A stretch of 56,515 bases of DNA from Catajapyx aquilonaris (lineage: Eukaryota), in contig KZ538171.1 in NCBI GenBank assembly GCA_000934665.2, positions 62,001-118,515 of the forward strand, in the 5' to 3' direction. Below the pieces are notes generated by a model. That model had not been told where the DNA came from and did no database searches. It saw only the letters and a list, made by a program, of their open reading frames with translations. Every line of letters starts with the position of its first letter. Position 1 is the first letter of the stretch. The translations under genes were made by a program, and so were the position numbers. Shown piece after piece: positions 1 to 28,200 of this stretch.

Positions 1-229
1 CCAACATAGTTGAAGTAATGCAACAAGTTTGTTTATGCTAGCTAACACATCACTGGTTTGCTCATAGTCAGCACTTTTTGTCAAAATGAGATGGTGGCTA
101 TATTTAAAAATATCCATCCACTTCATGTTATTCCAGAATCTAGATGAACCTTGCACACTGGATCTTTAAATGCTATAAACATACTGAAATTGCTTGCTGT
201 GGGGAAAATGAGTATATTGTAACACCAAC

Positions 230-3200
230 CTGATTCCATGGTATGTTGACATTGAAGCCCTCCCCCTTTCCACTTCCCACTACAGTGTGATCTCCTTCTG
301 CTGTTCCAGGGAAGAAGCTCCCATTGTCATAACGATGTACTGACATATAGAGCACACTCAGGTCTTCTTCAAACATGCGCTGCGTCCCATTCCCATGGTG
401 AACATCCCAGTCAACGATCATGACACGCTTAGCGTCATGCATTTGAAGAGCATACTTTGCAGCTGTGGCCACATTGTTCAAGAAACAAAACCCCATGGCC
501 TCATCTGCTTCAGCATGATGGCCAGGTGGTCTAATAATGGCAACTGCAGACCTTGCCTCACCATTCATAACTGCATCAACTGCTGACAGTGCACAACCAG
601 CAGCTAGAATTGCACAGCTATATGTATCTGAGTGGTAATACACACTCTGTACTTCATCCTGCAGTTTGTCCAGTTCACGGGCCTTCATCTTGGATGTTGC
701 AAGTAACTCGGATAAGTACTCCTCCGCATGGCACATCTGGAGTTCTTCCATGGTTGCTTCTCTTGGCTTCAGCTTCAAACAACGCTCTACCAGTCCAAAG
801 TCAAGATGGGCCTGGTATGCACTAGTAATTCGGCTTGGTCGCTCTGGATGCCCTGCATCAGATATATTCCTGTGCCTTGACATTCGCTCATCATAGACGA
901 TTGCTACCTGATGTGGAGCAACTTGAAGGTTAGTTGCAAACATCAAGGCATCCAGGCGCTCATTAAACTTCCCCTTAACATCTTCTGATTGCACTGGATA
1001 GTCGTCCATGACTGGGAATTTTTCTGGGCGCACATATTCAGACAAATATATTGCCTCCACTTTGTGACGCACACCATCTGCTGCTTCTTGTGCTGCTGGA
1101 TATATTTCTTGGAAGCGAAGGGATTTCCAGTATGGTCGGTGTGCATGGATACAGTCCAATATGGCATGGCGTATGGCATTTGAAGGCTCCTTCAGGCTTT
1201 CCACACGTGGACATGGATCTCCCAGAAGGGCCCTAAGGCTGTGGGCAGCCCCCTCAGCCAAAGATTTGAGGCAATATCCACCCTCCAGGACTACTGCCAC
1301 CTTCCCACCAGCCAGGCCCATCAGGCTGCTCACCAAATGGGAGTAGAATGCTGGAGTGACTTCCATCTCACCCTAGCACAAAACATTATGTTAGAAATGA
1401 ACTCAAACATTCACCAAATGTACACTAATTACATCAATATAAAGCCCAGGCCACAAAAGATGCAATATGCTGTATTCCTTCGTTAGCATATGAAAATACT
1501 TGGATTTCCAACTCTTATACAGTAAAACCCTGATAAGATTAACGCAGGTGGTCCAAAATTTGGGTGCATTTCATATTAAACAAGTTCATACTACCTACTT
1601 CTCTCTCATTTTCCCTACCATACCTCCTTCACTCCCTGTTCACGTGCCACAATCCCAGATAAAAGATATGCACACCCTGTTAGAGACGGAGCGCAAATAA
1701 GGCATGTGCATGCAATTCCCATTTTCAAATTTTGATGGGCAAAATCTACGTGAAATGTACACAAATTAAGGGAAACAACAGAAAACAAATCAACATGAGT
1801 GAAATTCTTTTTCATAGCCCAGGAACCATGAGTAACACAATCACATTATTTTCCTCTTAACTGGCTCTCCTTCCCAACAGGATTATCTCCCACACAGATC
1901 TTGTTGCACCCCTCAATTTTTGATACCTCAGGTTAGAGATAATGGCCCCCCTGAGTCTAAGTAGCCAAAGTGACCATAAATAGCCTTCCCCACAAGAATT
2001 TCTTTCATTCTCTTTGTATGAACTGGCCTAGCACTGGACTGCTTATGCCATGACCCAACGGCCATAATATTGTGTAACACAATAATTTCATCTCATTTAT
2101 CTGACAAAACATTGAATTCCTTCTCATCTTTGGGTTTTACTTAACATATATGAGTTTGTCTTATCAGGGTTTGACTATATTATGATTGTATTGTGCAGTT
2201 TCAATATAAAAATTCACATGAAATTATATCATAACACAAGAATGTGTCAGGTATTCAAGCCTAAGAAGTAAATGGCGATTCATGAGGCATTACTGTAATA
2301 ATATCTTGAAAGCAAATACAGGGTGCTCAAAAAATTGCGGAAAGTGGCCACGTAGCCTGATAAGACTCGCACAACAAGTATAGGGATGTGGAAGTAGTTT
2401 TGGGCTAACTTGCATAGTTTTTGCGTACGAAGCCTTTAAGATTTCAGAAGTTTCATGACGTCACATCCGCCTTGAGGCCCCATTGTGTCATCATACATGT
2501 TGTTGTGGCTGTTGCCATTGGCACTGAATATTGTTGCAAATATTGTTGAGAAATAAACAACGATTTCAGTCTGGCAGCTTGTATCTTATGGCCAGAAAGC
2601 CAGACTAAAAACACTGTTTATTTCTCAGCAATCACAGTTGACAATATTCGCAACAATAATAATCAGTGCCAATGGCAACAGCCCCAACTACATGTATGAT
2701 GACGCAATGGGGCCTCAAGCCCTCAAGGCGGATGTGACGTCATGAAACTTCCGAAATCTTAAAGGCGTCGTACGCAAAAACTATGCAAGTTAGCCCAAAA
2801 CTACTTCCACATCCCTATATTAGTTTTGCGAGTCTTACCAGGCTACATGGCCACTTTCCGAGATTTTCTGAGCACCCTGTATAGTGCAATATGAATTAAA
2901 TATTTCATTCAGATAATTATCTTCAGAATTATGGACACACTTAATTACACCCAACCTCAAGGGTCCCTTGTGCAACAGTTCATATCCAAAATGTCCCCAA
3001 GTGCATTACAATATGTAGCTAAGGGCCTGCAATATTCCTCTCTCCCATTAACAATATTAATATACTAATAGCTTTCAAAATGGCGATAAATATAATATAA
3101 ACTGAACCTCTCACCAACAAGTTTAAGATAATTTTCCCAACAAACAACAATTACAAAGTAAAAAAATCAAAATTTCATAATATTGTTGCTTGATTCCGAG

Positions 3201-6200: not shown

Positions 6201-9200
6201 CCAAAGTTGCATGTGATCCGTATGGGTGGTTTTTACTGTGCAAGGTGTAGATAGCCTTTGAAAAAAAACACAAAATATCAAATTGTGACATGGGCTTGTA
6301 TTGATCAGAATGGGCTGCTTTAGTATAGCACATAAACATGCAATTTCTGTAATTTCTTCTCTGCATAGTTGGCAAAGTACCTTGTTTCCTATGTGTGACC
6401 ACAGCTCACTTCATTGTAAATCTGGTGCATAGGAGAAACTGTCACAGAGGTGAACCACATTTAAATTGCTGAGCATGTACATGATGTGCAACAAAAATTG
6501 CCTCCAGAATTTTAATGCACTTGCAATGCACTTTTAAAATGAAAAGAATTTAAATGCATAAATTCAAGTACATTTTACACTCACATTTCATATTCCACTA
6601 ATCAGTGCAGTTCTGTATCCAAAAAGAATCCTTACTCTGTCAATTACACGTCTTTTCAGCAAGGTCTGAATCAGAACATTGCTACACAAGAAATCCCTGC
6701 AGCAATAAAATGTATTCTTATCCAAAACACTCCTGCAACTATCACATGCAAGCATTAAAACATTTTCCCTGGTTTTCAAGTAAGGCCTCTTTACCATTGA
6801 AAATCTGGAGTCCGCAACACTGGCAGCCATTTTTAAAAGGTACAAATCTACTTCCCACACTTGTTGAGGGGCTCACTGAAGTGTCAAGGTCATGACAAGA
6901 TAAAAAGTCTCTGATAACACACTGAACCGTGAGAGCTCCTGAATCTAAAGCAAACAGGCGTGATAATTCAAGATAAACGGATGGCTTCATCTTAGCGCAA
7001 ACCAAATTATACTGCACTATGGGTAAGTTGCTATGTAAAGATCAAAGAGTAGGTCACCTCAAATATAAAGATCTACAAAGCCAGAAGTTGCAATTTACCT
7101 GAAATAATCAGGGTAGCACTGGACTTATTAACTTAGAAGGCCGCAGAAAATCTGCACCTCTTGTCTGGCTTTCAAAATATGTATAATTGCCCGTTTATTA
7201 GCAGAATATAAAGCACAATATATCTTATGATTTCCTAAATGAGCTATTGCAAATTAACTTCAGAGTTACACATGGAATCCCTTCACATTTGACAGCATCA
7301 TTTACTGCAAATACATGACATAATCATAATCAGTGTATGCCCACATCAAACAGGCCTGTAGTAATGAGAAGGCACTTTCATGTGTAATCTGAAATACACG
7401 AGCAATATAGTATGTTCTAAACGCAATTCCGCAGATTATTGTTATCAGATGTTACAGACATGGTATCCATAACATGACGAGAGTAGCACTCTTTATCGCT
7501 CGAATGATTCATTTTGTCAACTTATCACAATGAATGCTGCAATTATAATTCAAACCTTCTTCAAGTTCACTGCAGAAGGCTCTTCTTCCTTTACATCATT
7601 CTCTAATTTGCAACTGCAAGAAGCAGTCACAGAGGTATCTGTTGGTAGGCCTTGCGAAACCTCCTCCAGCTTATCATCTTTCATAACACTCATTTTGGTG
7701 GGTCTCTGTGTCAAAACTCATGAAAAGTGAACTCGGCCATTAACCTCATTAACTACAACGAAGTAAATAACCCCAACAATATGTTCATAGTTGCCTCAGT
7801 AACGAAGGTGCAGAATATAACTACCTGGATGGGTTGCAACGTGGGACATTAATTAAGGGATTAGAGGCGTAGACAAGGCATTATGTAGCAGTACTGTGAG
7901 TTATTGCATTTCATTCCATTACAGGCCATAGAATGTCCACTATGGCCAACTGTCTGACAGGACTATTGCTCTTAGTTACATGTTCATTAGTATTGTAACA
8001 AAGTGCAACTCCCAAGCAGGTATACTCGGATTTCTATCAAGTCCAAATATTTCGAAAATTGTTATTTCAAATCATTTGAAATTTTGGTAATGGATACTCC
8101 TACTAGTACTTCACAAAATCCAGTGAATTTCATCTTGGGGTTTATACACTTTTATGCCGCTCCAAGGTGAATTGGCCGCTGCCCAGACCAGTTAGGGCGA
8201 AAGTCACGTGTAGATCCTGCAACTTTCACCCCTACTGGTCTCGGGCATCAGGCGATTCATCTTGGGGCGGCACATGAATGGTGACGCCATGTATTACCTA
8301 TTTTCGCACACGTCAAAATTTTCTCCTCGATAAGATTTTCAACCTCCATGACGTTTGCCGCCCTGTAAAATTTGCCGCCCTAGGCACCTGCCTACTTGGC
8401 CTATTGGGTAATACACCCCTGGTTACACTTCACACAAAGAACAAATAGTTCATTCAAATGTAGAATAGTACAATGGCCAATGGTGATTGTCAGGAGTGCC
8501 AACAATGTAACTAACAATTAGAGGCTTGTAACATGTGAGTTATGCATTTTGTCCCAATCCCAGGGTAATGGAGAGGGTAAGTGAAAGAGGAGGGGGCTCC
8601 CAAAATCCTCTCTCGCCACTTCGCATTGCAAAAACTAGCTGGAACGTGGAGAGAGGAGAGAACAGTTGAAGATCATGTAGTGCTAGAGGTTGTTGCTAAA
8701 TGCCAGTACGCAGTACCGGGATTAAGGGAATGTATGCTGCATTTCTGTGTCTTAAAACAGCTCTTTAAAACCTTCACTATCTCTCCCCGTGGCAAGCTCT
8801 TGCCATTTTTCCACTGCATCAGCCACACTCCAGGCTGCACAAGGGTTCTGTCAGATCTCCCCATTTCCCTCCTTTTACGCCTCTTCTGATTCTCCTATTC
8901 TTCATCCCTCTTTCTCTTCAAAAGATATCACCTCAGCTATTTCGAGACGTTGGTAGAGAGCTCCACTCATTTTACCCCCTCTTCCCCCACTCTAAATTTC
9001 TGGATTCAGGATAGAAACAACAGGATAGAGGTCACACACCCTCTTCAGTATCCAGACTTGGGATCAAAAACATGCTCCAGTACTGTGCTTGAAGATTACA
9101 TGATGGAACTTCTAAAAATCAGAGTATAGCTATCCAGACAGTGCCTTCTGCGGTCCTTACTTGTAGTGTTAAAACTTATGCTGCGATATTATAAGAACAA

Positions 9201-11151
9201 TTCAATGCCATGCGGTGCTTTCACAGGTGATGGGAAGTATAGTACACTGTCTTCGAGGCACTTCTTTCGGTGTAGTGTCGGATACTGACTGCCGTCGAAT
9301 ACGTACAATCGAACATAAGATGGCGGGGTGCAAATCTCCCCACGTTCCAATCAGCCTGGAATGTATATATTGTTGGTTTTCCAGTTGTGCCAACTGGCAG
9401 GTTGTTTATACCGTCAGTAAAGGTTATTGAGTTGGCACAACTGGCAACCAACAATTGGCAGGTTTTTGGGCCGTCTCTTTCCTTCTTTTTGTTCAAAATT
9501 CGATGTAGGAGTGATATTAATGAATAACAACTTTGCGCCAAAATTAATCATTTAAATTCGTGGTGGCCCTTTTGATTGTAAAATGCCGGGAAAAAATTCA
9601 TCTGCAGGGTGTCCCAGAAATAAAACTTTTTAGAATCATCCGGCTCTCAGAAAGTCGATCGGCCTAACAGTTTACTCAGTCACTATACCAGCGGTTTCCA
9701 GCCTGGGGGTCGCTGGTGGTCGCGAGCCTTGGTTAAACTTTTTTTTTTTTTTGCAATATCTGTGTAAATTCAACCATTTTTGCGGCAGTACAGAGTATAT
9801 GTTTTCTGGAAATGGGTCAGTCGTAGAACGGGCCCGGGGGGGGGTGTCGCACATTTATGGAAACATGTTTAGGGGGTCGCAGTTGGTAGAAGGTTGGAAA
9901 CCCCTGCACTATACATTGTTCTTATGTTTACATAATATTACCACAACACTGTACTATGATAAACTCCCAAGGGTCCAGACTTTACGGCACCCTGTACTGA
10001 GGAAACATGTTTACATAAACGATCACGTAGGAGCAATGTGACCTTCGCATATACGACTCAACTTGGTGGAAACAGGGGGTATCTGGAGTTGCTATGGTAG
10101 TTGAGTCACCATCCAAGAGATGGCAGGAGCATATTGAACCGGGTTTGGCACCGCAAAGTTCGCTTTTTCTATGCACATCCTCGCGCGCCAAATTCAAAAA
10201 CCCTCAGGACATCATATTAATTATGATGTACTTAGCCGTCAAAGGGTTAATATAAGCCGGAGGGGTGGGGGAAATGATGCAGATAATTGTTGGATGAGCT
10301 TCATTAAGAACATGACCTACACCACAGGCCGCAGGCCTAGAAAAGAGCGAGCGAAGCGAGTGGTTTTCTAGGCCTGCGCCCTAGAAAAATGCGAGCGGAG
10401 CAAGACCTAGTGTCCCATTAATTACACATGCTGCTTCATTTCCCACTCCTTTCTCTCATTAGTTCATGACCTTTCTTCCTCTAAGATCACCATCAGAGAT
10501 GTCAAAGCTGCCAGTATTGGATCCTCAGGTACTAGATTTACAGCGCACTGCCTCAAAGCAATTCCAATCAAATACAATTGAATCTGGATGTAACAGCCTT
10601 GGCTATAACAGACTTTTGGTTATAACATACTCGAAAGGCCAGTCCCATCACACTTCCATATATGGCTTGTGTATTCAGCTATAACAGACATTCGTTATAA
10701 CAGACTGATTTCTGCTTGAAGTCTGTTATATCTGGATTCGACTTCATTATTTGACCCTGATATACTCTATCACATCATGGTTACAGTTGACCAATACATG
10801 ACAGCAGCAGATTACCCAAATGACTCAGTTCAATGTGATGTCTTCAACATCTGGCTTGTGGCACTAAAACTCCCCAGGATCAGTACTTGGTATAAGTCAG
10901 AAAAGTCATTTTATGCACTTTCATGTTATTCTCACCGGCTGATAAAAATCCTGCACCAGTGTTACTTTCAGTGAATCTCTCTTAGGCTTCCTTGCATGAT
11001 TCCTGTGCTCTCCCGCCTTATTTTTGGGCAGGCTTCGATGTTGCAGTACCCTGTCCCTAACTGGCACATCACCTTGCCCTGCCAATCTTGGTGGGAAACT
11101 CCTCTGCTTTCCACTCTTCTTCTTCTCTACCTTGTGCTTCACACCTTCCAT
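230..11151 (-). CDS. HDAC6: Histone deacetylase 6 (class IIb, tandem HDAC domains), multi-exon, 3'-partial (continues beyond window start)
   Basis: Exons (minus): 11151-10936 (MEGVKHK...VQDFYQP), optional 7705-7556, 5123-4344 (AHESKDVLRKGTGLVYDERM...RPPGHHAMEDEFCGYCFFNNVA...VDWDVHHGQG...LPMAYE), 3491-3432 (FNPDLVVVSAGFDSALGDEK), 1372-230 (GEMEVTP...LEGGY...RPPGHHAEADEAMGFCFLNNVA...VDWDVHHGNG...NIPWNQ). All junctions GT-AG, phase 0. Two catalytic domains in one chain are diagnostic of HDAC6. N-terminal exon assignment is less certain than the catalytic exons. Confidence 0.93.
1520..2177. mobile_element. Degenerate pogo/Tigger-like MITE in HDAC6 intron
   Basis: Terminal inverted repeats CAGTAAAACCCTGATAAGA (1520) and TCTTATCAGGGTTTGACTA (ending 2177), flanked by TA. 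Confidence 0.55.
2319..2879. mobile_element. Tc1/mariner-type foldback MITE (near whole-length palindrome)
   Basis: TA|CAGGGTGCTCAAAAAAT...ATTTTCTGAGCACCCTG|TA; the two halves are reverse complements over almost the full 561 bp (e.g. gatgtggaagtagttttgggctaacttgcatagtttttgcgtacga at ~2386 vs tcgtacgcaaaaactatgcaagttagcccaaaactacttccacatc at ~2768). Confidence 0.92.
5203..5782. mobile_element. Mariner-derived foldback element carrying transposase C-terminal remnants
   Basis: Long TIRs (ggtgaatcaaaaagtaattgacaactttttta / taaaaaagttgtcaattacttttcgattcatcc); + strand ~5622-5680 translates EKLVSRWDKCTKLYGDYV and - strand ~5470-5330 translates RLKKHLASQHFSDEDEVKQAV...GMEKLVSCWDKY, both matching the mariner (DD34D) transposase C-terminus. 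Confidence 0.85.
5870..6124. mobile_element. Non-autonomous DNA transposon, Sola-like (copy 1)
   Basis: 30-bp TIR GAGGGGTGTGGTGGAAAAAGGTGATAACCC / GGGTTATCACCTTTTTCCACCACACCCCTC; 4-bp TSD ATTT on both sides; homologous inverted copy at 44911-45159. Superfamily call inferred from GAG..CTC ends and 4-bp TSD. Confidence 0.8.
7556..7705 (-). CDS. Candidate alternative (cassette or alternative first coding) exon of HDAC6
   Basis: 150 nt between acceptor ...ttttgacacag (7708-7706) and donor AAG|gtttga (7555); open in phase 0: RPTKMSVMKDDKLEEVSQGLPTDTSVTASCSCKLENDVKEEEPSAVNLKK; contains caaaATG at 7693; joins in frame to the 5123 exon. Confidence 0.5.
8155..8272. repeat. Imperfect hairpin / small MITE remnant
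   Basis: tgccgctccaaggtgaat...gcccagaccagttagggcgaaagt pairs with actttcacccctactggtctcgggc...attcatcttggggcggca. Confidence 0.55.
9689..9906. mobile_element. hAT-superfamily (Charlie-like) MITE
   Basis: TIRs CAGCGGTTTCCAGCCT / AGGTTGGAAACCCCTG; perfect 8-bp target-site duplication CACTATAC at 9681-9688 and 9907-9914; subterminal GGGGGTCGC repeats. Confidence 0.9.
10575..10744. mobile_element. Small Tigger/pogo-like MITE
   Basis: Imperfect TIRs CAATTGAATCTGGATGTAACAG / CTGTTATATCTGGATTCGACTT with several internal TATAACAG repeats; TA at left end. Confidence 0.55.
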
Positions 11152-11759
11152 GCTGTCACCCTGAAAAGATTAAAACAGGTTATTCAGTTTTTTTAAACAA
11201 AAGTAGTTACAGTATTTGTACGCATCACATCAATAAGGAGATTAATCAATGCCTTCTTCATGAAAAATAACTTTCCTGTGAGAGGTAAAAAGTGCAATCA
11301 ATTTTTCAAGCACATAGGACATGCATAGGAATTGTGATACTAGTTCATTCTCATAAATCTGAGAATCCACAAATCATACTATTTCAGTTCGTCGTGGGTA
11401 CAATAATTTTATAAATGAGTAAAAAAAGCATTTTTGCACGGGTTGTAAATCATATTGGTAAAATAACTGTTTTCAGATATTACACCAATGTCGACTTATG
11501 AGTTTATACTAGTTCATCATGCTCAGTTCTCACAGTCACGGGTTTTCTTTGAACCAAAGCAATTACAAATGACTTGCATGCCAATAACGTAACTCTACTT
11601 AAGTAGATCAGTGCCAAATTACACTTCAGTCACTTGCTGTAATGCAGCCTTGCCTCTGTGACGTTCAAACAAGCGGCAGTGTTTTGTTAATCCTACGAGA
11701 GTTTCAAATCTCTGCAACTTATCAATAAGGAAATAGAACAGTTGCATGATGCGGCATAC

Positions 11760-13251
11760 CCTTTCGCCTGCTGTAAAGTGCAGTGCGCAATAGAGCGGTG
11801 ACAGTGGGTCAGTGTCGGATGGGCTGCGGGTCTGTGGCACGGACGCACCAGTCACTGGAGTGGCGGTGGTGGTGTCCTCCGAAAGGGAGAGGAACCCACC
11901 CAGCATCAAGAGTGGCCATGCAGGGCACCCACTCGGGCCCTACCCACGCGGTGCATGCCTGTCCTCCTTTCAAGCTTATACTATAGACCCACCCTCCCTT
12001 CTACTTTTCCTTGCCCCCGAGGTGCCCTCCCGCCCTCCCTTCGGCCTTGCCGCCCTAGCCCCGTGCTTCGAAGGACAGGCCGTCCAGAGTCCAGTCCACC
12101 CACCCACCCAATAAAAAGAACAACAACAAACAGCGATGACCCACAGACCGTAGAGATCCAATATGGCGGCGAGGGTGTCAGACGCCATTTTGAGTCCAAA
12201 TTCGATCAAAGGGCGGGAACATGAATGGGCGAATCGTACTGTACTTCACATACGTGTGCTATTTGAAACGATTTGCACCATACCATTGAATAACACCGTA
12301 CCGATAAACGCTATGTGACTACAGCGAACTCGAAAAGTATAAAAGTCAGCGATCAAATGATGGAAATGACTACTTACCCTTTTAAAACGCACGAAATTTT
12401 TTGAGGTGATGAGACCAAGTAATCCCGTGTACGGCACACGCACTACTGCAGACAAACCGTGTTTTCGTCTTTCAGTACGAAACCGTTACACTTCCGTGTG
12501 CCTACTTCTTTTCGGTTGGATACTGGAGTGTCTGGTCCCGTTCCGTACTTTGTTGTTACAGTTACAGCACCGTTGAAACAAGATAAGTTTAGGGTGATTG
12601 AATGTATGTCAGTTAGATCCCAACGATGCAAGGCAAAGAATGAGTTGCTTTTGCATACATGCATATTTATGAGAAGAAAAATCGATACATTCTGAATGTG
12701 TTGCGTGAATAATAACTGTGTGCACATTCTTCATGCGCAATCTGGGTAAATCGGGTTTGGTGGAATAATCACTGTTACGTAATTCCTCACATGTCTTACT
12801 GCACGCAATATATTAACCTGTAATGCGTATGTTTGAGCAGCATTCTCTACGAGTAGTAATTACGCAACTTTCTCATATAACTCTTATCAGCATCTCCATC
12901 TACATTGTAATAGCCTACCAAGAGACAAAATTGCTGATGGACTATTACAATGACAACCGATGAGCATTTTTATGAGTCAGTAACGCACTCGGTCTATTAC
13001 GTCACAAACTGTGTTACCGTCAGTGTTACGATCACGCAACAGGAAGCCCCCTAGTAAGAGTTTACCGGTTTTGCTCTTGCGTAACATTGGCTCCATCGTC
13101 ATCAAAGCGTCAAGTGGGTTATTTTCAAGCGTACGGTGCAAAAATCGATGCAGCTTTTTACGCCTCAAACGGAGTCAAGCGAATGGTGACCTTTGTCAGT
13201 TTTGACGTCACTAGTCATTCATATTTGGGGCCGACCTGGATCCGAACCCAG
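11760..13251. promoter_or_regulatory. Probable bidirectional promoter region with non-coding first exons (HDAC6 leftward; TENT4/MIPEP rightward)
   Basis: CpG-retaining segment between divergent genes; YY1-like motifs AATATGGCGGC (~12160) and CGCCATTTTG (~12183); TGACGTCA at 13203-13210; minus-strand donor G|GTATGC at 11759; plus-strand perfect donor CAG|GTGAGT at 13251/13252. TSS positions cannot be fixed. Confidence 0.55.
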
Positions 13252-15518
13252 GTGAGTCACATCGTTATGCCGTATCTGCATATATAGGTGTAATGCGAAA
13301 CCCGACGGGCGGGGGGGGGGGGGGGGGGGNNNNNNNNNNACAGGGAGGTTTTTTAACCCCCGGGGAAAGAACTTTGGCAAGTGGCCGAGCCCAAATGTGG
13401 GCCATTCCTATGTGGAGATCTCACTGGGGTGCGAAGTGCGAATGTTTACGGCCGAGTCTCTGCCACGCGATTATCTAATAGCAGTTTCGTGGCAACCATT
13501 TTTATGTTATTTCTTTTTTTTTCTTCCAACCCTCCAGTGTGCCCCCCTGGCCACAAATCCGAAACATGTCATGAGTCACCTGGAGGGGCTGCCACCTATT
13601 TTTGGACATTTTATCCGGATATTTTTAGGTAGGTTTAACTCTCAATTGACAGGACGGTTCGTCGGTCCCATGCAGATAGATACATACATAGTAACTAGAA
13701 TCGTTCGGGGGGGGAATGCCGTCACTACCAACCACCCACGCTGCACACCGCCATCAACCAGTCCGTATTGGGCTGCTGGCAAGCTGCCAAAGTCTGACCT
13801 GAAACCTGGCATATTTCCCCCTCCACCAGCTCCGACATTTTCCTTGAATTCGCTCCATCTAGTCAGGCACACTGACCGGAAACATGCCGGGCATATCCCA
13901 AGGCCATTTCCACGCAGGCCGAACTGGAAGAGAAAAATTCAAAAGCCCGCCTCACTTCCCTAGTCAAATCAGCATTCCGCATTTTGCATTTAATGGCGTA
14001 AATTTAGTTACACCTTTTTTTTAAAAAAAAGTTTTTTTTTTAATTTGCAATTTTTTTTTGTTGAGCTGCAATATAATCCCCCCCCCCCCTATCCCTCCAC
14101 CATCTTGTTCCTTCCCCTCCCCCTCCCCTCACGCATTTTACATCACAGCCTTCCGAGCCAATCCACCGGGCTCCCCACCTCCCTCCAGTCCGCCGCCCCT
14201 CCTCGGCTGGCTGCCCCTCTCCGGTCCGCCTGAGGTAGGCCGCCTACTGCCCGCTCCCGACATCATCGCCAGGCAGGCAGCGATCCCGCAACCCGCACCC
14301 GGAACACTACAGGGTAAAAGCCCTCATTGGGACAGATGGCATCTGGGTGTAGTGCTGTAGTACGGCAGCGTGTGTGCCTCCGAGTAGCACCTTTTATAAC
14401 GCCTGCCTGCACGTGAGGGACCCCGGTGTGCTTCCCCGACCGCGCCTCCTCCATTCCTTCCATGTTTGAAGGGTACCCGATCGATATCCACCCGAGCGGA
14501 CTCGGGTCGGGGGAAAGGGAACCCCCTCCTCCCTCAATATTTCTGACCCAGTTTGGTCTTTGGCGCACTGTGTCTAGGGTATGGAGGCTTTAAAATGGTA
14601 GGATGGGAGGAGACTGGGCTATTTTAAGGGGGAGGGTGGGGGGGACATTGCTATTTATAGGCTTGACCTCCTCAGGGGCAAGTGATGACCACCACAGGTT
14701 AGGGAGGGAGAAGGGCTTGTCCTTTGGTGATGGTACATTTTATCAGGGAGTACGCACTGGTGGTGATCCGTGCAGTGCCGAGATAGGGTGGTGGCAGATG
14801 CACATGTTGCGGTGGGGATAAGTGCAAGTCCACTGGGGGAGTGATGATAATTTTGGGAGATTGCGCTTAGATTGTCACTGTGGGGGGACACAGCTGTAAT
14901 GCAATGGAAACATCAGGATTAGATCACAAATTTTCATCCATCCATGCCTGCAGTGGGATGTCAGCTACGAATTCATGCTACCTTCTGTGTCGTCATTGAC
15001 GAGGGGCATGGGCCCATGTTGCCTGGATCTTGATAATTGCGGAACTAATTTTTCAGTAGGTTGCGTGACCTGGAGAGAGAAATATCGAATAGTTGATCCA
15101 AGAAGCCAAGAAAACAAGGTGACAAGCACAAAAAGAAAGTGTTTTCCTATGGGACTTGTTGGTATTGGCCTCATGAATGCATAGTGCTCGAGTGTGTGAA
15201 AGAAGAATGTGTATGAAAAAAAAGAGGACCATTTGCAAGTCAAACCCAGTGATTCAATAAAATTCAGAAAAGGTCAGGGTTACTTGATAAGCAAATAGGT
15301 TAACCATCAATGGGATTTGGCTGGCAAATGAGGTTTGAATTATGCATTGACCAAGTGTAGCTGTTGCAAAGGACAGCTGACACGATCTTGAGTGACGTTT
15401 ACACTCATTCTTGCTGCTTTTTTCACAATTCCAGATACCCCAGCCAACAAATGCACACTGGCAAAGAGCATTGAATGGACTTCTTGAGGGTGACATCTGG
15501 ATGCGTCTTTCTGGGTGA

Positions 15519-17558
<2,040 letters not shown>

Positions 17559-18816
17559 AAACCTTTCCATTTCTTTTCTTTTTGCGTCAGTGGCTCCCTA
17601 CTACTTAATGCGACTTTATGTGACTCCATTAGTGAACTCCTTTCCCATGCTTTTAAAAATCATGTCCCTACTTGACTCCATGAGAACATACTTTTGCCTC
17701 TTGATGATTTCATCTTCCGGGAAACCAGTGTAATTTTTTTGCTGGTATTACCCTTTACCCATTACTTATTTTGAGGATTTAACTTGTGCCTTGTTGGATT
17801 TAAGCATGTTGGTTATTGTGCTCTTTTATCTGGCGAGGCAACCACTTACTGTGCTCCTGCCCTGACCCCCCAGCCCTTACCCTTCCTTCTACTTTTGTTT
17901 TTAAAAAAAGGAAAGAAAAAGCACAAAAATAAACACACTTGCTTGTAAGTAAAATATCATTGTCCATATATTATGGACCATGTTATTTGTTGAAGGATCT
18001 CTTTTGTAAATGTTGCAGAAAAAAAAAATGTTTAAGTTTAACATGAAAAATATATAGTGTATTTTGTGAACAGTTTACTTCTGGGACAAAAAGGAAATAA
18101 TGATGAATCGCAACTTTAGTAAAGTAACTTGAGACTCGATTATTAGACTTGAATGCACGTTTTTGCAACAAAAAGTTCAAATATGTATGCATTACATGCA
18201 GCTCATGGATATTATTAACTTGTCATAATCATTTTTAAATGTTCTCAGTTTTTATACTTGCATTATTAGTGCCAGTGGTTCTATTGTTTTTGGTTTCTTT
18301 TTTTTTCGGAATGGGTGTGTTTGTGTAGGTGTGAGCGTGTTACTGAACAAAATGGAAAAAAAAAGTGCCAGACAAAGTCTGCCACAACCGTTTGGCACGT
18401 ACTGGTATATACATTGTAGTTAAGGAATGTTTGGTGATAATAAACACATTGTAATTATTGTACATACAAAAAAAAAGGCTGTCTTTCAGTGTCCCCTCCC
18501 CTACCTACCTGGTTTCCCAGCAGATAAGCAACGGGCTGGTGATTCCATTTGGATGCAAGAAAGCAAGCCAGCCTGTTCACTTTAATGGTACAGTATAAAG
18601 TTGATTGTCCGGACATATATTGACGATTATCCGGACTCACAAGGCAAAATTATTGCGTGGCATTATATTTAAATCTTTTGCAGAGTCCGGATGGTTGGCA
18701 TTGTACTGTAGCATGACTGACACCATTTTAATATAGATTAATATGTTCTGCTCAGTAATTAAGCACTTTTTTTTTTTACAGAATACTGACCACAAAGGAC
18801 TGAAGAGTGAGGAGCA

Positions 18817-21800
18817 ATGATGAATCTACTTATGAAACATGCAGGGAAGCTCCTGCCTTATTCTCGCCAGCAATGTTTATGTTCTCTCACAACGTGGTCA
18901 GCCGTTGCCACTGCATTCAACACAAAGCCAGCTCAGAAGTTTTTGCCAAACATAACATCTGCTCCTACGGTATGCAAATCATGGTTCCTTTAAATTCAAA
19001 TCCCCTTTCATTAGCAACTTAGCTACTTTAATGATATCTCTTAGCTAAGTGTTGCATTTGAGAGTTTTGTTACTCAGAATGTTCTCTTGAACACCTCATT
19101 ATGACCAAAAAGCAAAATTGTCTAGAGCACTTGTCAAATGTACGCAAAGGGATTCCTGCCATAACCAAGAATGTGTGCTGTTTTAGTTAATAAGTTGGGT
19201 AACTTGTGTCTTATTCATTACTGTAGGGAAAATGTGTTGATGATGGATGATATTGAATAAAGGCAGGCATTTAAAAGAGGGCCAGAGGCCTGCTTTGAGG
19301 TGCCCAGGTATTATTTATTAAATTCCATTGTGATCAGGTGGTATTTGTGACTGTGCCTGCTGTATGATGAGTTAAAATACCCCAAATTACTGGAAAGGAA
19401 AAATGCAGTGAAGCCTGTTTCTAGTGAAACTAGGTATGCAGTGGAAACATGTCTGCTGCAGAAAAATTATGTAGTCCTTGTTACGAGATAAAGATTAGTA
19501 TTGAATTCTTGTTAAATGCAATAAAGCCTGATCGAAACTAATGCAGGGAGCAGTTGCAGTTCTGTCAGGAATTAAAAATAATGCCTTTAATAAAGATAAT
19601 ACTGTAATATTGTACTAAAGTTTTTCCCAAACTGTTATTAATCATGATTCTTTACTCTCCTAAGGGCTTATTTGGCATCCCAGAGCTGACATCGCCAGAA
19701 GGGTTTTATCTCCTGAAAGAGCAAGCAGTACAGCAGGCTGAAACCTTGGTAACTGAGGCTTGCAGGCCAGACCGCAAGCGCAAGATGGTGTCCATTTTTG
19801 ATGATCTCTCAGATTGCCTCTGCAGAGTGGCTGATATGGCTGAATTTGTCCGCCTGGCACATCCAAAGCCCAAGTATGCCCAGGCAGCTGAAGATGCCTG
19901 CTTAAGCATTGGAGTCCTAGTGGAGAAGCTAAACACACACCGTCAACTGTATGAGGCTCTGAGAGCTGTGGTGGAGCATGGAGACATTGATGAAACCTCA
20001 GACGTGGACAACCATGTTTCTCGCTTATTCCAGTTTGACTTTGAGCAGTGTGGAATTCACTTGGAGGAGAGCAGCCGGAAGAGGGTTGTGCATTTGAATG
20101 AGTACATCTTGTACCTGGGCCAGCATTTCATGTCAAATTGCTCCAATCCTGCATCTGTGCCAAAAAGTTTGATCAACGCCGACATGAGGAGCTATTTTCC
20201 AGAGGAGGGTGGAAATCTGATGGTGTCAGGGTTGTGTGCAGAGCATCCAAATGAGTCGGTACGAGAGGCTGCTTACAGGATGTTTTTGAAACATGACCAC
20301 AAGCAGGAGGAAATCCTCATGGAGTTGCTGGAGTCACGCTTCGAGCTTGCCCGGCTCTGTGGGTTTGCCACATACAGCCACAGGTATAATTATGTCGACA
20401 TGGGGATGATCCATGTTCACTCTGGAAATTACGGGGGGAGAGCTTATTGTGTTTGATAATTTCACTTTGAGAACACAGTCATGTGAAATATCATAATTAT
20501 TTCTCAAGAAGAATGATGTAAGTTGATATAATAGTCAAGATTCACAATATTTAAAATAATTCCATCATGGAAAGGAGCGGAAAGAATAAATTGTAAGTTG
20601 GTGTAGCTAGGGCTGCACGTTACTTAATCATGAAGTGTTGGAAGAGGGGCGAAAACTGCAAAGCTAATGTATGGCCCATGCCACCATTTTGACTGCTTTG
20701 ATCTTGAAGCAGTGCTTAGCAAACATATTTGGTGTCGCAAGGGAGATTTTTNNNNNNNNNNNNNNNNNNNNNNNNNNNNNNNNNNNNNNNNNNNNNNNNN
20801 NNNNNNNNNNNNNNNNNNNNNNNNGGGGGGGGGGGGGGAGTAGGGTTGAATTGGAATGAGGGTCATGAATTTTACAGAACGATTTTCTGTGGTCGCTAAC
20901 AAAAAAGATTGGGAAGCACTGTCTCAGAGAATGGGGTGGAGGGGAGGTCACCTTTTATTAGGAAATTGGGAAGTGATTTACAGGAGCATGCTAGGACATT
21001 CATGACCTGTTGACAATGAAAGAGGAATGGGGAGGATCTACGTATGTTCTTCATTCTCCAACTCAAAAATTAAACCTCTCAAGTCTATTTTTTTTGCTAC
21101 AGTTAGCTCTGTTTCTGTCACTCACAGTAGCTTACATTGCAGCAGTGTTGGCTTAAGAATAGGGAAGACCGGGGCACAGTGGTCTACTTTTGCACATTTG
21201 AATTTTTCAAAGAGTCCGTGTTATACCTACACACCAAATATTTTCTGGCATGGTGGAGGTACTCATTGGTAATACACGTCCCTAATATATTCACAGGCAG
21301 TGCCATCCATTAGGCTTAAAAATATTTTAGAAGCTGCTGTATGCCAATGGACCCTGTACCCTGATGCCTGGGGGACAGTGGTCGGGAAATGATTGGGACC
21401 CCTAATTCACATATAAGAAACATACTTAATTTTTATCATACATCTAACCCCTCTAAATAAATAGGTAATAATTAAAAGGGACTTCTGTCACTGCAACCTG
21501 CGGACACAAGTGCAAAAGCGTCTCTCTCCGGAAAGTAGACCTTGTCCTGCCACATCCTTTGGCGCATGAACTTTATTTCATACTGGTGTCTATCAAAACA
21601 ATTAACATATAAACCTATGATGACATTAATTGCTGTGCAGAGGCTAAATGGGGCACGGTCATCCACAAAGAGGTGCACATTTGTCCATGGACCACTGTCC
21701 CCAGAGGGCAGCAACTGACATGATATGAATCATAGCTTCCGTTGCAAATGATGGTTTCCAAATTTCTAGCATTTATGCACAAAGAATGACACTATTCAAC

Positions 21801-23989
21801 AACATTTCCACATCAGGGTCATTTAAACTGTTGGTTAGAAGTAACTTCACTATCCTTCAAAGAGTTTTTCCTGATACAGCAGGATCACAGGCATCTCAGA
21901 GGTGGCTGTCATGTTTGCAGGATGCACAATAGTGACTTGTTTCACGAGGTACCAGATGGAGATGTTATTCCAGTTTCTTGTATTTTTAAAATAGAAAGGA
22001 CCACTGCGCCCCGCTCTCCCCCTATAGATCATTAGAATTGCAGAATTCCAGTCTCTTCTGTGGTTAGCATGTTCACCAGAACTTTTCCAGCATACAACTC
22101 AATAACATTTTTAAATGCAGAGCACTGCGAGGAAGCACTGCTGAGTCACCTGGGATGGTGAAAGATTTCCTGGATCTACTGTCACAGCAACTCAAGGACA
22201 GGGCAGGCAAAGACTTTGCATCCATGAGCCAGATGAAAGGATCAGAAATGTTTCCTTGGGACCCTCCATACTACACATCCAAAGCCAAGGTTCACCTGAT
22301 GCAAGGGACAGGAGGGAATTTGACCCCATACTTTTCCCTCGGTTCTTGTATGGAGGGATTAGACCTCCTGTTCCAGAGTTTGTATGGAATATCTCTGGTG
22401 GCTGAGGAGGTACAACTTGGAGAGACCTGGTCATCCGATATTTATAAGCTCAAAGGTAAGCATTGGTGCCAGGTGGCAAACTTAATGTTTCTTGGGAACC
22501 AGACCTGAATCTTGCTTATTTATCAAGGACAGGTTTTGTGGTCTATTCCAGAAATGGGCGATAAAAGTATAAAATTGCTATTGACAATATATGCTTAGCA
22601 TGAAAATTTCTTTGGTTTTTGGATCCTGCTTTTGGATTTTGGCAGGACTATTGCATCAATATTTAATTGCCTAAAAATGTGCCTTGTATTTTTTCTACTT
22701 GGTAATATTTCTGCCACATGGTGAAACCTGTCACTTGTGGACCTTTCATTTGTTCTCAGCAGGGGATTCTCAATGCAATTCTGTCATGCTTAAGGGAAAC
22801 TCAATACAGGGAAATTTCCTGAATGGTGTGACTGGGCTGTAGATAGGTTTCACCATGGATGATAAACAACTTTCCTGAGCCTCTTGACAAATCTTCCAGT
22901 GGTCCATGAGAAGGAGGGTGTGCTGGGCCATATCTACTGTGACTTCTATGAGCGATCAGGCAAGCCATACCAGGACTGCCACTTTACAATTCGTGGAGGG
23001 CGCAATCTCCCGTCTGGTGACTACCAGAACCCAGTGGTGGTCCTGATGCTCAACTTCCCCTCTCCATCTGGCTGGAGTGGAGGACCCTCCCTCCTGTCAC
23101 ATGGCATGGTAGACAACTTGTTTCATGAGATGGGTCATGCTCTGCACTCCATGCTGGCCCGCACCTCCTATCAGCATGTGACAGGGACTCGCTGCAGCAC
23201 CGACTTTGCAGAAGTGCCATCTGTGCTTATGGAATACTTTGCATCTGACCCAAGAGTGCTCTCCAGATTTGCTCGGAGGCATACTGATGGACAGGCCATG
23301 CCAAAGGAGAACATCAAAGCCTTGTGTGCTTCAAAACACCTCTTTTGTGCCTCTGAAATGCAGCTGCAAACCTTCTACTCTGCATTGGACCAGAGATACC
23401 ATGGGGAGCTTCCTCTCACGATGTCCACTACAGATGTACTAAAGGAGGTGCAGAAAGACTATTATGGATTGCCTCACGTTTCTGATGCAGTAAGTCACGA
23501 GTTGGAAATTGCTTACTTGCTTTCCCCCTTCCCCCGAAGCTCACATGATTTCTATGTACTGTACAGTACATTTTAATAGGTGATTTGGGAATAGGCCTTC
23601 AATAGCTGCTCCTGCAGCAACTCCTGTATGCCTTCTCACTGCAGCCATTGTTTCTGTTTGATCATTCACATTCCTGGTACATTTTCTTGCAGGCTTGGCA
23701 ACACCGATTCAGCCACCTGGTAGGGTATGGCGCCAAGTATTACTCATACCTCATGTCACGAGCAATTGCTTCCTGGATCTGGCAAGAGTACTTCCAAGCT
23801 GACCCTTTCGACCCAAAGTCTGGTGAGAAGTACCGCCAAGAATGCTTGGCCCATGGGGGAGGTAAACCCCCGCGAAAGCTAGTGGCAGACTTTTTAGGGA
23901 AGGAAGTGGGACCTGAGAACCTGGTCCAGTCGTTGATGACTGAAATAGATGACAGGCAGGCCATGGCAGATGCTATGAAAGGAAAATGA
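18817..23989 (+). CDS. MIPEP: Mitochondrial intermediate peptidase (M3A metallopeptidase), ~697 aa, 5 coding exons
   Basis: Exons 18817-18969 ([11 protein letters not shown]...WSAVATAFN...; transit-peptide-like), 19665-20383 (GLFGIPEL...[19 protein letters not shown]...TYSHR), 22121-22455, 22900-23489 ([10 protein letters not shown]...[13 protein letters not shown], HExxH zinc motif, [12 protein letters not shown]), 23693-23989 ([19 protein letters not shown]). Phases consistent (0,2,1,0), all GT-AG. Confidence 0.95.
20710..20921. mobile_element. Probable hAT-like MITE spanning an assembly gap
   Basis: Ends CAGTGCTTAGCAAAC / GATTGGGAAGCACTG; flanks tcttgaag vs tctcagag are only a degenerate 8-bp TSD. 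Confidence 0.45.
21162..22022. mobile_element. Non-autonomous TIR transposon (TA-flanked) in MIPEP intron
   Basis: TA|GGGAAGACCGGGGCACAGTGGTC ... GACCACTGCGCCCCGCTCTCCCCC|TA; internal copies of the GGGGACAGTGGTC motif in both orientations (~21371, ~21690). Confidence 0.75.
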
Positions 23990-25205
23990 CGAGTTGAAAT
24001 GATTTCTGCAGCAGCTGGAACAAACTGAGCTGCCCTCACCTGATGTAATATGACCAGAGGGATACCTGCCACAACGAAATGCTGCAGATGATTTTGGCTT
24101 CTGTGACTTCTGAAAGTTGACTCCTTGTGATCCCATAGCCATGTATGAGCAGTTGTGCAGCTAGACAGTTTACTACTTGAGAATTACACCCTCACAGCTT
24201 ATTAAAAACTATTACTTTCCCACATTCCCAAACCTGCAACCCATGAAACTTTTAAGGTTGAGTGCCTTTGTGTATGGGAGCCTAGACAGGGTCAGCACTT
24301 TTAGTATGTGTACCTTTGCAGACCAAACAGGTGTAAAATTCCAATCTATGCATTTTTTCCGTTACAACTGTAATTGTCAGGTAGTAACACGCTGTCTAAA
24401 AATAATCAAAATGTAGGACTTAATGTCCAAAAAAAAGTATCTTATGTGCGAGAAATCTGCTTCACTGTACTCGTGTGTAATCATTTTTGTAAGTGACACG
24501 TGAAGAAGAGAACAGGAGATAATGGAAAGTTGGGTCACATTTATTAGGACTGGTAAGAAAGAAACCACTTCCATTATTGCATTACTTTTTTGATTTTAGC
24601 TGCTTCCCAAAGGATTCAGCACTTTTTATACAAAATGCATTGAAGGTTTGTTACTTTTATTGATAAATTGACTGTAGTCTGAAAGTCCACTTTTTTGTCA
24701 CCGAGCACAACACAATACCTGTGGCATTCCTGCCAACTTTATTGTTGAGTCGACACCAGTCCCCTCATCAACAGATCCTCAAACATTTACATGAATTAAA
24801 ATTAATCGGCTGGAGCAGGGGCAGGGCTCACTTTTACACCTGGAGGGGCCAAATAAGGGGGGAGGAGAGATGCACGGAGGAGGAAAATGCTTCAGATACA
24901 CCACAAGTCCCAACCTACGTGACCAAATAAATCTCAGGGAGGTATGTAACAGGTTTTTAAAAAAAGTTCCTGCCTGATGGGAGTTCAAGCTGCAAAAATG
25001 TTCATCACTGTCTTCATACACACGAAAACTGCACACACTATTGGTATCTTTGCAGCAATACTTTACTCCAACAATGTCTTGGGCCAGTTCACAAGGGGTG
25101 GGTCAGGGGGGGAAAATGCACAAACTGGGATGATATTCCCTGCAGGCAAGGGCAAGATTAGGAAAGGAAATCATCTGGGCCAAGTGCAGAATTGGTGGTG
25201 ATTAT

Positions 25206-28200
25206 TTAGGCAACGTAGTTGTACTGGTTCGGATTGTCCTTGTCTCTCTCCATGTAATCCCGTTCGATGAGAGACTCAATGCGCTTCTTCAAGTCTGCAG
25301 GCTGTGTGGAAATGCAGATTAATTTGTATGTGCTGCTAAGGGCCATTATGTAAATGATTATCCAAATTAATATTTACCCTAAGCTGTAGTCATATTTAAT
25401 ATGGGTGAACAGTGCTGGAAAAACTGACGTGCAGCACCACAGCGGGTGGAAGCATTCATGAATCAACTCAGCAACACATTTCTGTGAGCCCAAGTCACTC
25501 TTCCACCCACACCAAGGGTACAAGCCAGTTTTTTCCTGCACTAAACCATACTCTACAAAATACACGGCCTATTGAACCACGTCAGCGGCAAAAACGTCAC
25601 TTACTTTCACTGGAAACTTGAGCTGGTTGTAGAGTTCACTGATCAGTAGGTTGTGGGTAAGTGTCTTCCTCATTTTCATGATCCGTACAATTGCTGCATC
25701 AATCTGGTACTGCCGATCCTGAAACACTCGCTCCTCTGTTGCCTTTTGCTCCTCAGTCTGAAATGATGCATCTTTGATGTTACCTTTTCAAACTGAAAAA
25801 CCTGCACCGAAGGAAAATATTACACAGTAGAAATTTTTACACATTCCTCACCTTACTTACCCTTCTACTCTACCCCTTAACTAATATCTGTCAAAACAAT
25901 AGATGCCCAAAATCTCTGGGACAAGATTGGATTAAAATTAAGCCTGCTATTTATCACAGGTCTGATATAACATACCGTCTCTTTCATCTGGATCTGATTA
26001 ATCTTGATGCGGAACAGCTTGTTACTGAACTCCCTATTGAAGACAAACCGATCACTGTCTTCAACATCCCTACCCCTGGGGACCTTCTGCAACACTCTCG
26101 CTTTTCCACAAGCCAGTGACTGTAACGTTCTTCTCAGTTCACCATCCTGTGGGTTTCAAATTGACAATTAGGTCTGGGGTCATAAGACTAGACAATTAAA
26201 CATACCTCAATGTTTGTAGCAGTCCTGACCTCGTCAAGGCCCAGCTCATCTATATCATTAAAGAGAAGCAGGACAAGAGCCTGGAAAAGGGACACCTGGA
26301 GCTCCTTCTTTCCCTGTGGAAAGTCAGCTCTAAGGACACAGTGGCCCAGAGTAGGTTGCCACTGTAGTTTGCGCCCACTGTGTTTGCCCAGGTAAAATTT
26401 ATTGAAGATGTCTTGATATTGGACCATCTCTGCCGGGAGGGTCACCTCCATCGGCTGATAGGTGGGCCAGTACCCCATGGTTAGTATGTTCACTGTCAGG
26501 TCTATGTTGGATGCTGCAGGATTCTTCATGTTTGCTGTGTACTGCAATGTTTTAATAGTGTCATGAGAAGGCTCCACTTATAAAATGCCATTAACTCAGA
26601 GGGATGTAACATACGGCACATCAACAGTTTGTTATACAATATGAAAGTTAGGATCAAGCAAAGGTCACAGTGACAGGCCTCACCTGCTTGAAAGCAATAT
26701 TGATATCCTTTCCCAGTTCCATGTCCTTAAACATGCCCTCGAGCTTGGATGTGAATCCTCCTCCACATTCCTGCTTCAACTTTGACAGCATGCTCTTCTC
26801 TGCATCCACACTGGCTGATTTGCCCACTAGTAGGCGTTTGGCCAAGTCCTTCTTATAGAAAGCCTCAAACACATCCTTGCCATGGATAAACCTGAACAAA
26901 ACCATTATTTTGTCCAGCAAACGCTCCAGCTCCTCCTCTGTTGCCTCCTTGTTTCCTGCGCGCAGCTTTGAGTCCACAAACTTGGCTGGAAGGAATCAGA
27001 TGAAATTTTTGGCAATATCATCATAAATGAACTTAATGTACTACCGTATTTACTCGCATATAAGACACACACGCGTATAAGACGCACCCCGGTTTTGAGG
27101 CGAAAAATCGTGGAAAATCGGTTGTTGACTCATATAAGACGCACCCAGATTTATTGCCGTAGTTTGGGAACTGGCCTCGAGCTGCCGGCAGCAACCTCAT
27201 GTGCAATGCATGTGCGTGTGGAATCCATTAGAATCCAGTAAAAAGGGGGGGGCAAGTGGAAAATGGGACAATGCTACGCATCTGAAACGTATAGGTGGCA
27301 AGGTCACACCGGAATTGTGCACGTGTGTGGACGGCCGAGGAGAGCGACGATGACTGATTCGAATGTGCGATGTTTTTAAATTTTTCCATAAACGATTTTC
27401 ACGATTTCTCACGGGTTTCACCCGTTGTGCCCTGCCGTATAAGACGCACACGCGTATAAGACGCACCCTACTTTTTGAGCTACAAAAATCGGAAAAAAAG
27501 TGCGTCTTATATGCGAGTAAATACGGTATATCGCTCAAAAGCATAGAGACGATTTTGAGCGATATGGTACAACCAACACCATCATATTCAGGAGTACTTA
27601 TGGCCTTTTCAGACAACCTCATGTTCCAAGTCAGGCTGAGCTAAGGCAAAGCTTCATACGCTAGTAAGTTTCACAGACCTGTATCAGTCACTCCCGTACT
27701 GTTTCCACCATCCAGGTGTAAGTGACGGGGGAACATTGATGGCTTTCCCAAATGCAGCAGTCATAATGAGCATGCATCGACCAATCCCAACCAACAGATG
27801 ACCAGGAAGTTAGGTTGTCTGAATGAGGCTTAAGTGTTTGAAAGTTCATAAACATAATTTGCATACCTATTAATTCAGCTGGCTTGTTAGCTCTTTGGTT
27901 GATGAAGTGCTCAAATGCTTCCTTCAGGCTGTTGATAAACTTTTCATTTTTCTGGAAGCAAGTTGACACGATGTTGTCCATTTTGTCCTTGAAATCCAGC
28001 AGCTCCTGCACCATCGTCTTGTCCTTCTCAGGGTCTATCACGATAGTGCGGCCTTTCTTTTGGAGTGAATAACACCCCAGACATTAAATCGGTTGCTCTT
28101 AAATTGAGAAATCACTCAGCTGAGATAAACTAACCTTTATGAAAGTATTGAAGTTGGTGCATAGCTCCTGCAACCCATTTCTGACACGGGAAAACAGGCT

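Follow-up and report, generated by a model that had tools for sequence, protein, structure and literature searches.

Where does transcription of MIPEP, the gene for mitochondrial intermediate peptidase, begin in Catajapyx aquilonaris, in which another gene of the same strand, TENT4, ends just upstream of it? The window analysed here is a stretch of 56,515 nt that forms the end of a 118.5-kb contig in the 286-Mb genome, and it carries HDAC6 (-), TENT4 (+), MIPEP (+), a CUL4-like cullin gene (-) and a Rab gene. A preliminary description of this DNA had noted that MIPEP lacks a proximal promoter, and had proposed that TENT4 is nested in the first MIPEP intron, that the two genes share a first exon, or that a dicistronic pre-mRNA is resolved by polyadenylation and spliced-leader trans-splicing. 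The analysis reported here favours, with a probability of roughly 0.78, a MIPEP transcript that is cis-spliced from the promoter region upstream of TENT4 across the whole TENT4 exon, from either a leader of its own or a leader shared with TENT4.

TENT4 (Trf4) was identified by an open reading frame at 15675-17558 (+) with matches to Pfam families PF22600, PF03828 and PF01909; its N-terminus resembles that of arthropod TENT4, and a search of the organism's own genome returned one match. MIPEP matches PF01432 and its top matches are named mitochondrial intermediate peptidase, while the HDAC6 coding exons (-) carry a Pfam Hist_deacetyl match. The transcript data were the contigs of one public run, the kind of which is unrecorded and which was treated as RNA-derived because its contigs show spliced joints. 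All statements based on them refer to the contig pieces listed, which show presence only and drop rare forms, and the stretches covered exclude 12192-14047 and 18688-19615.

The first MIPEP coding exon was placed by homology at 18782..18969 (+), with a 35-nt 5' untranslated region (UTR) and its ATG at 18817. This start codon gives a presequence of normal length in comparison to the homologues, ahead of the conserved TWS motif, and the intron following the exon lies at the same codon position in the termite-like and bee-like contigs used for comparison. The acceptor in front of the exon, eleven T followed by ACAG with its last base at 18781, is strong and unusual: 2 of the 33 runs of at least eight T on both strands of the whole window are followed by YAG. 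Because of an in-frame TGA at 18808, any exon upstream of 18782 is non-coding, and given this stop and the lack of an ATG in 14100-14313 or 18782-18816 the MIPEP and TENT4 proteins have no coding sequence in common. The other MIPEP coding exons (+), found by Pfam matches and contigs, lie at 19665-20383, from 22121, at approximately 22900-23489 and at 23693-23989; one contig joint connects 23489 to 23693, and a loose contig end at 20383 matches the exon at 22121. MIPEP is intact and expressed, and therefore needs some promoter. When metagenome contigs were searched for exact copies of the beginning of this MIPEP exon, no match came up. At the other end of the gene, a contig over MIPEP reaches 24553 and the depth climbs beyond it (23989-24700), and the 3' UTRs of MIPEP and CUL4 may overlap tail-to-tail. 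The stretch 20880-20928 in MIPEP intron 3 is a dispersed repeat, matched by several unrelated contigs with loose ends.

The gap from the TENT4 AATAAA (18439) to this acceptor, 18445..18781 (+), comprises 337 nt with 39% GC, 6 CpG and an observed/expected (o/e) CpG ratio of 0.48, a composition like that of gene bodies; the exon, the acceptor and the polyadenylation signal stand as the preliminary description had them. Within the gap lie a weak donor at 18538 (score 2.5) and, at 18594, a TATA-like hexamer, neither of them beyond chance expectation, and no initiator (Inr)-like motif of the consensus tested was found inside it. Since 5' ends in this genome are CpG-rich and gene bodies CpG-poor, CpG density could be used as a promoter proxy, and we scored each gene by the 300-nt window richest in CpG among those lying up to 1.5 kb upstream of its first Pfam-matched base. 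The controls were 20 proteasome or chaperonin loci and seven genes of this contig, one locus having only 875 nt available; about eight further proteasome or chaperonin loci were omitted, for instance for too little upstream DNA or doubtful identity. The results showed 15 to 29 CpG in the best window of all 20 proteasome and chaperonin genes and 15 to 26 in all seven genes of the same contig, in comparison to 7 for MIPEP between the TENT4 stop and the MIPEP ATG, or 10 if the window is allowed to enter the TENT4 coding sequence. The MIPEP flank thus gave the lowest value measured, against 15 to 29 in 27/27 controls. Among gene-body tiles, 3 of 24 contained at least 15 CpG and 18 of 24 contained at most 10. 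The reported absence of a promoter-like CpG block from the gap was borne out by these values, and a promoter of MIPEP's own in the gap is unlikely.

Two observations made along with the CpG measurements are recorded here for their own sake. In a comparison locus (L006, 7115-9770, -), a TFIID-18kDa-family gene, which we take to be SUPT3-like, follows a same-strand WD40 gene and has a best CpG window of only 15, which falls in a GC-rich stretch of 700 nt that contains open frames and matches no Pfam family; a WD40 frame on the opposite strand (9037-9759) lies between the two genes, and the TFIID-18kDa-family gene is possibly another without its own promoter. The body of CUL4 contains a CpG-rich island at 27000-27500 (34 CpG, o/e 1.3), which may be an insertion or an internal promoter.

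A CpG-rich block that would serve as a divergent promoter region, for HDAC6 on the minus strand and for a candidate promoter P1 on the plus strand, extends over 12000..13300 (71 CpG, o/e 1.1). On its minus side, a contig joint that skips 599 nt splices the HDAC6 non-coding leader exon (11760..11968, -) to 11160, and the 5' end of this leader may lie further up, near 12200. On its plus side, a candidate P1 non-coding leader exon, the proposed MIPEP exon 1, was delimited from motifs and a donor at 13196..13251 (+). Inr-like motifs at 13196 and 13215 and a cAMP response element (CRE)-like palindrome at 13203, all judged against consensus sequences, precede the donor, and there is no ATG between the first Inr-like site (13196) and the donor at 13251. 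With a scoring matrix built from the consensus, this donor is near-perfect (8.0), scores of at least 7.5 being reached at only 8 sites in 233 kb on both strands, the apparent first-exon donor of CUL4 among them. The CpG density on the plus side peaks at approximately 13018 and 14222 and each peak ends in a donor; as the second donor is taken by TENT4, the donor at 13251 and the acceptor at 18781 are both left unpaired. Judged from the genomic sequence, CUL4, CWC15 and a PIGZ-like gene have the same design of CpG block, donor and intron, and in CUL4 and CWC15 a short non-coding exon is followed by an acceptor close before the ATG.

Both promoter blocks and the gap were single-copy in a search of the own genome, which within its limits points to no repeat, and an Rfam scan of 11500-20000 gave no matches. 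A hidden gene at 13340-13960 was considered and rejected, as no Pfam match was found there. A possible 91-nt non-coding cassette exon at 13538-13628 (+), between the P1 and TENT4 leaders, is delimited by an acceptor rich in pyrimidines (13537) and by a donor with a score of 4.8 (13628). At 12160-12191, the probable HDAC6 start, two opposed YY1-like motifs stand within about 30 nt; this motif was discarded as a promoter marker, since among the matches listed HDAC6, CWC15 and the PIGZ-like gene have it and most control genes lack it nearby.

TENT4 itself was found to be a complete unit, with its own leader, a poly(A) signal and an intact open reading frame. The contig-covered part of its non-coding leader exon, 14257..14313 (+), with a possible acceptor at 14188, is joined in a contig to 15435, which removes a GT..AG intron in the 5' UTR of 1121 nt (14314..15434, +). 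This leader lies in a second CpG-rich block, 14050..14500 (+; 29 CpG in 451 nt), which is the candidate TENT4 promoter P2. For TENT4 the preliminary description had suggested junctions from 13251 or 14234 to 15551; the contig instead shows 14313 joined to 15435, and 13251, 14234 and the acceptor at 15550 are all unused there. The near-perfect donor at 13251 plays no part in the one TENT4 contig that covers the junction. The terminal exon (15435..18467, +) consists of 240 nt of 5' UTR, an intronless coding sequence at 15675-17558 (627 aa) and the 3' UTR; contigs cover 15434-18445 without a joint and stop at the AATAAA at 18439, and cleavage is predicted near 18467. Within the 5' UTR (15435-15674) there are five upstream ATGs with frames of 5 to 45 codons, all ended before the main ATG, and these possibly exert translational control. 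The acceptor at 15550, if used, would strip three of the five. At the predicted cleavage site, 23 nt past the AATAAA, lies a run of nine A (18468..18476, +), which is possibly the remnant of a retroposed poly(A) tail; among the 330 AATAAA sites of the DNA that was sampled, 3 are followed by such a run, that of TENT4 included, and it was spotted post hoc.

From these observations we infer where MIPEP starts, the use of the donor at 13251 and the junction into 18782. MIPEP transcription would start in the same CpG-rich region as that of HDAC6 on the opposite strand, and a short non-coding exon from that region would be cis-spliced to the acceptor at 18781, with removal of an intron of 4.5 to 5.5 kb in which the complete terminal exon of TENT4 lies together with the TENT4 poly(A) site. 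If the leader is the exon ending at 13251, to which we give slightly less than an even chance, TENT4 would be nested in MIPEP on the same strand and would have a leader and promoter of its own at about 14.1 to 14.3 kb; the pairing of the unassigned donor at 13251 with the unassigned acceptor at 18781 is chosen because it is the simplest bookkeeping. A single leader common to TENT4 and MIPEP, either the one ending at 14313 or the one ending at 13251 spliced to both acceptors, is a possible though less probable arrangement; the exon ending at 14313 is joined to TENT4 in a contig, and the contigs do not cover the MIPEP exon 18782-18969. On either arrangement the TENT4 acceptor and poly(A) site would compete with the stronger distal acceptor, and this choice would set which protein is made from each transcript.

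The gene order in relatives bears on this proposal. Linkage was counted by eye for species present in both match lists, with contigs of equal length as a proxy for the same contig. TENT4 and MIPEP were on contigs of different length in 18/18 other arthropods. HDAC6 and MIPEP were on contigs of equal length in 12 of 30 species; their accessions are consecutive in Periplaneta and Eufriesea and 3 to 5 apart in two crickets and Cephus, and they lie on one chromosome with wider spacing in Anabrus and Schistocerca. In two termite-like contigs (L097 and L100), the HDAC6 N-terminal exons (-) lie head-to-head with the MIPEP ATG (+) at a distance of about 950 nt and no TENT4 match was found; the comparison of leader introns in the termite-like MIPEP 5' UTR is based on two sequences only, which are 95% identical. 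No TENT4 match was found in any of the 78 loci compared. In a bee-like contig (L079), CUL4 stands tail-to-tail with MIPEP as in C. aquilonaris. The synteny check set by the preliminary description therefore gave the head-to-head order without TENT4, in some relatives and not universally. From the linkage of HDAC6 and MIPEP and their head-to-head order in relatives, MIPEP appears to be an old partner of the HDAC6-divergent promoter, as the favoured reading requires.

Several points weigh against splicing from the upstream region. The contigs cover neither site, so that neither a junction into 18782 nor use of the donor at 13251 was observed, and nesting or a shared first exon, which fits the CpG controls, the unpaired donor and acceptor and the termite-like layout, is carried by these and not by a junction. 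A 10-N assembly gap after a G run (13330..13339) separates the donor at 13251 from TENT4 and MIPEP. The species in which HDAC6-MIPEP linkage was missing include the two decapods, all six flies and mosquitoes, and some species with fragmented assemblies, and in the bee-like contig L080 a methyltransferase gene (1-3120, -; PF01170), presumably TRMT11-like, replaces HDAC6 and faces MIPEP head-to-head. The remaining points speak at the same time for a CpG-poor promoter of MIPEP's own, located in the gap or in the 3' UTR of TENT4, which would give either a short first exon ending at 18538 or an unspliced 5' UTR starting from the TATA-like hexamer at 18594. Three additional intervals that we measured gave 22, 13 and 10 CpG, the last two lying between the gene for cohesin SA and that for hydroxy-acid oxidase (start codons unlocated), and CpG-poor 5' regions may thus exist in this genome; the termite-like interval between HDAC6 and MIPEP also appears AT-rich by eye. 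The donor at 18538 is as strong as the contig-supported donors (1.2 to 2.5, n=4). The earlier statement that the gap lacks a strong donor was thus true but does not discriminate, and donor strength was rejected as a test of whether a first exon lies in the gap because real donors are equally weak. On the other side, the background is two such donor sites per kb, and chance alone should place one such donor and one TATA-like hexamer in an AT-rich stretch of 337 bases. The gap contains no Inr-like motif of the kind tested, every one of the controls has a CpG block where MIPEP has the poorest flank, and a promoter in the gap would leave the donor at 13251 unexplained. We consider this alternative improbable, although the most serious of those that do without the upstream region.

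Two further explanations would derive MIPEP from transcription through TENT4. In a spliced dicistronic TENT4-MIPEP mRNA, read-through past the AATAAA would be followed by splicing from a donor at 17944, 18328 or 18538 (scores 3.5, 2.2 and 2.5) to 18782, with internal initiation or re-initiation at MIPEP. Re-initiation is unlikely after a first open reading frame of 627 codons and five upstream ATGs, and the TENT4 stop would sit far upstream of the junction, both of which count against such an mRNA on general grounds of scanning and nonsense-mediated decay. The TENT4 contig, within the limit that contigs drop rare forms, runs unspliced through 17944 and 18328 and stops at the AATAAA, and no contig bridging TENT4 and MIPEP was found among those listed, where contigs show presence only. 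Dicistronic pairs are common in Drosophila, where 159 are recorded (PMC4528330), yet for this locus we judge the explanation to be quite improbable. In an operon, cleavage of one pre-mRNA at the TENT4 poly(A) site would be accompanied by trans-splicing of a spliced leader to 18782. The poly(A) signal, short gap, strong acceptor and missing strong donor are indeed the anatomy of an operon, spliced-leader trans-splicing occurs in copepods (PMC4664967) and is listed for amphipods (PMC7986045), and a quick TENT4 tree places C. aquilonaris outside the winged insects and outside the malacostracans, although weakly (support 84). Against this, operons are, according to PMC7986045, so far unreported from copepods or amphipods, the leaders of TENT4 and HDAC6 are both encoded in the genome and cis-spliced, a genomic donor without a partner lies upstream, and an own CpG block was found in 20/20 sampled housekeeping genes, including two that stand behind a same-strand gene (a DDX23-like gene in L009 and a tRNA-binding-domain gene in L027). 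The operon version of the preliminary description gained no positive support, and we regard it as very improbable that MIPEP belongs to a spliced-leader operon, which would be one of an arthropod lineage other than the winged insects and the malacostracans.

If the favoured reading of MIPEP splicing over TENT4 is followed, the locus may have arisen by either of two routes. One is the insertion of a TENT4 retrocopy into the leader intron of MIPEP, which is consistent with the intronless TENT4 coding sequence, the run of nine A and the absence of TENT4 from the termite-like contigs, and is weakened by other single-exon genes in the genome and by the linkage of TENT4 and HDAC6 in crabs. These two genes are on one chromosome in three crabs, two accessions apart in Eriocheir and about 100 to 260 apart in Portunus and Scylla; no such linkage was found in Rhipicephalus sanguineus or in approximately 29 insects present in both lists. 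Because of the crab linkage, TENT4 may alternatively be the older occupant, with MIPEP spliced over TENT4 to the promoter and TENT4 later relocated in winged insects. The intronless state of TENT4 does not decide between the routes because the genome has other single-exon genes. In one comparison locus (L024, 1434-4112, +), Vps41 is a single open frame of 893 aa lying head-to-head with a chaperonin gene, which marks the lineage as intron-poor. It is a doubtful but conceivable extension that the locus is what is left of an ancient promoter hub of HDAC6, TENT4 and MIPEP that broke up reciprocally, with insects keeping HDAC6 and MIPEP together and crabs HDAC6 and TENT4.

In comparison with known systems, TENT4 and MIPEP most likely form a same-strand nested or shared-leader pair that would work like human CPNE1/RBM12. 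In that pair, the coding sequence of the proximal gene lies in one large terminal exon behind non-coding exons, and the distal gene is reached by skipping the proximal one, the choice being ascribed to polyadenylation and splicing (PMC2568002). The two cases differ in that the shared leaders of CPNE1/RBM12 were proven by cDNA and reverse transcription PCR, whereas here sharing is a candidate arrangement and TENT4 seems to have a CpG block and leader of its own. In FlyBase, a common promoter and common 5' non-coding exons are recorded for 130 genes, and same-strand nesting is not flagged as exceptional (PMC4528330, Crosby et al. 2015); these Drosophila melanogaster models concern other gene pairs and are transcript-based, whereas the key junction here is deduced. 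The ChAT/VAChT locus is similar in that VAChT, a single-exon open reading frame, lies within intron 1 of ChAT on the same strand and that alternative splicing is combined with several promoters (PMC3053374), but its functions are coupled and its layout is conserved from nematodes to mammals, while TENT4 and MIPEP have no known functional link. Among mammalian nested pairs, same and opposite orientations are broadly similar in number (PMC11694760). The spliced-leader operons of nematodes and tunicates share with our locus the poly(A) signal, short gap, strong acceptor and lack of a proximal promoter, and differ in that no leader was seen at our locus, where the contigs leave the MIPEP exon uncovered, and that operons are, according to PMC7986045, unreported in crustaceans with spliced leaders; since median operon gaps are 517 nt in Trichuris, close to 100 nt in C. 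elegans and 1-57 nt in tunicates (PMC7986045), the gap of 337 nt is not decisive. No paper on the TENT4-MIPEP pair was found in a search that was without most subscription papers and supplements (e.g. FlyBase File S2, which holds the fly pairs).

The layout itself is already well known in flies and humans, where numerous pairs of this kind occur, and the mechanism is ordinary. For annotation, the favoured reading means that the MIPEP gene model should begin about 5 kb upstream and enclose TENT4. For regulation, a single choice of splicing and polyadenylation may decide between a nuclear RNA-tailing enzyme and a mitochondrial processing protease. The comparison between species is of greater interest, as HDAC6, MIPEP and CUL4 are neighbours in insects and HDAC6 and TENT4 are linked in crabs, and all four are found together here. 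Because this genome holds the four genes together, the locus may illustrate how use of a divergent promoter is retained or acquired by a gene as its neighbour arrives or departs.

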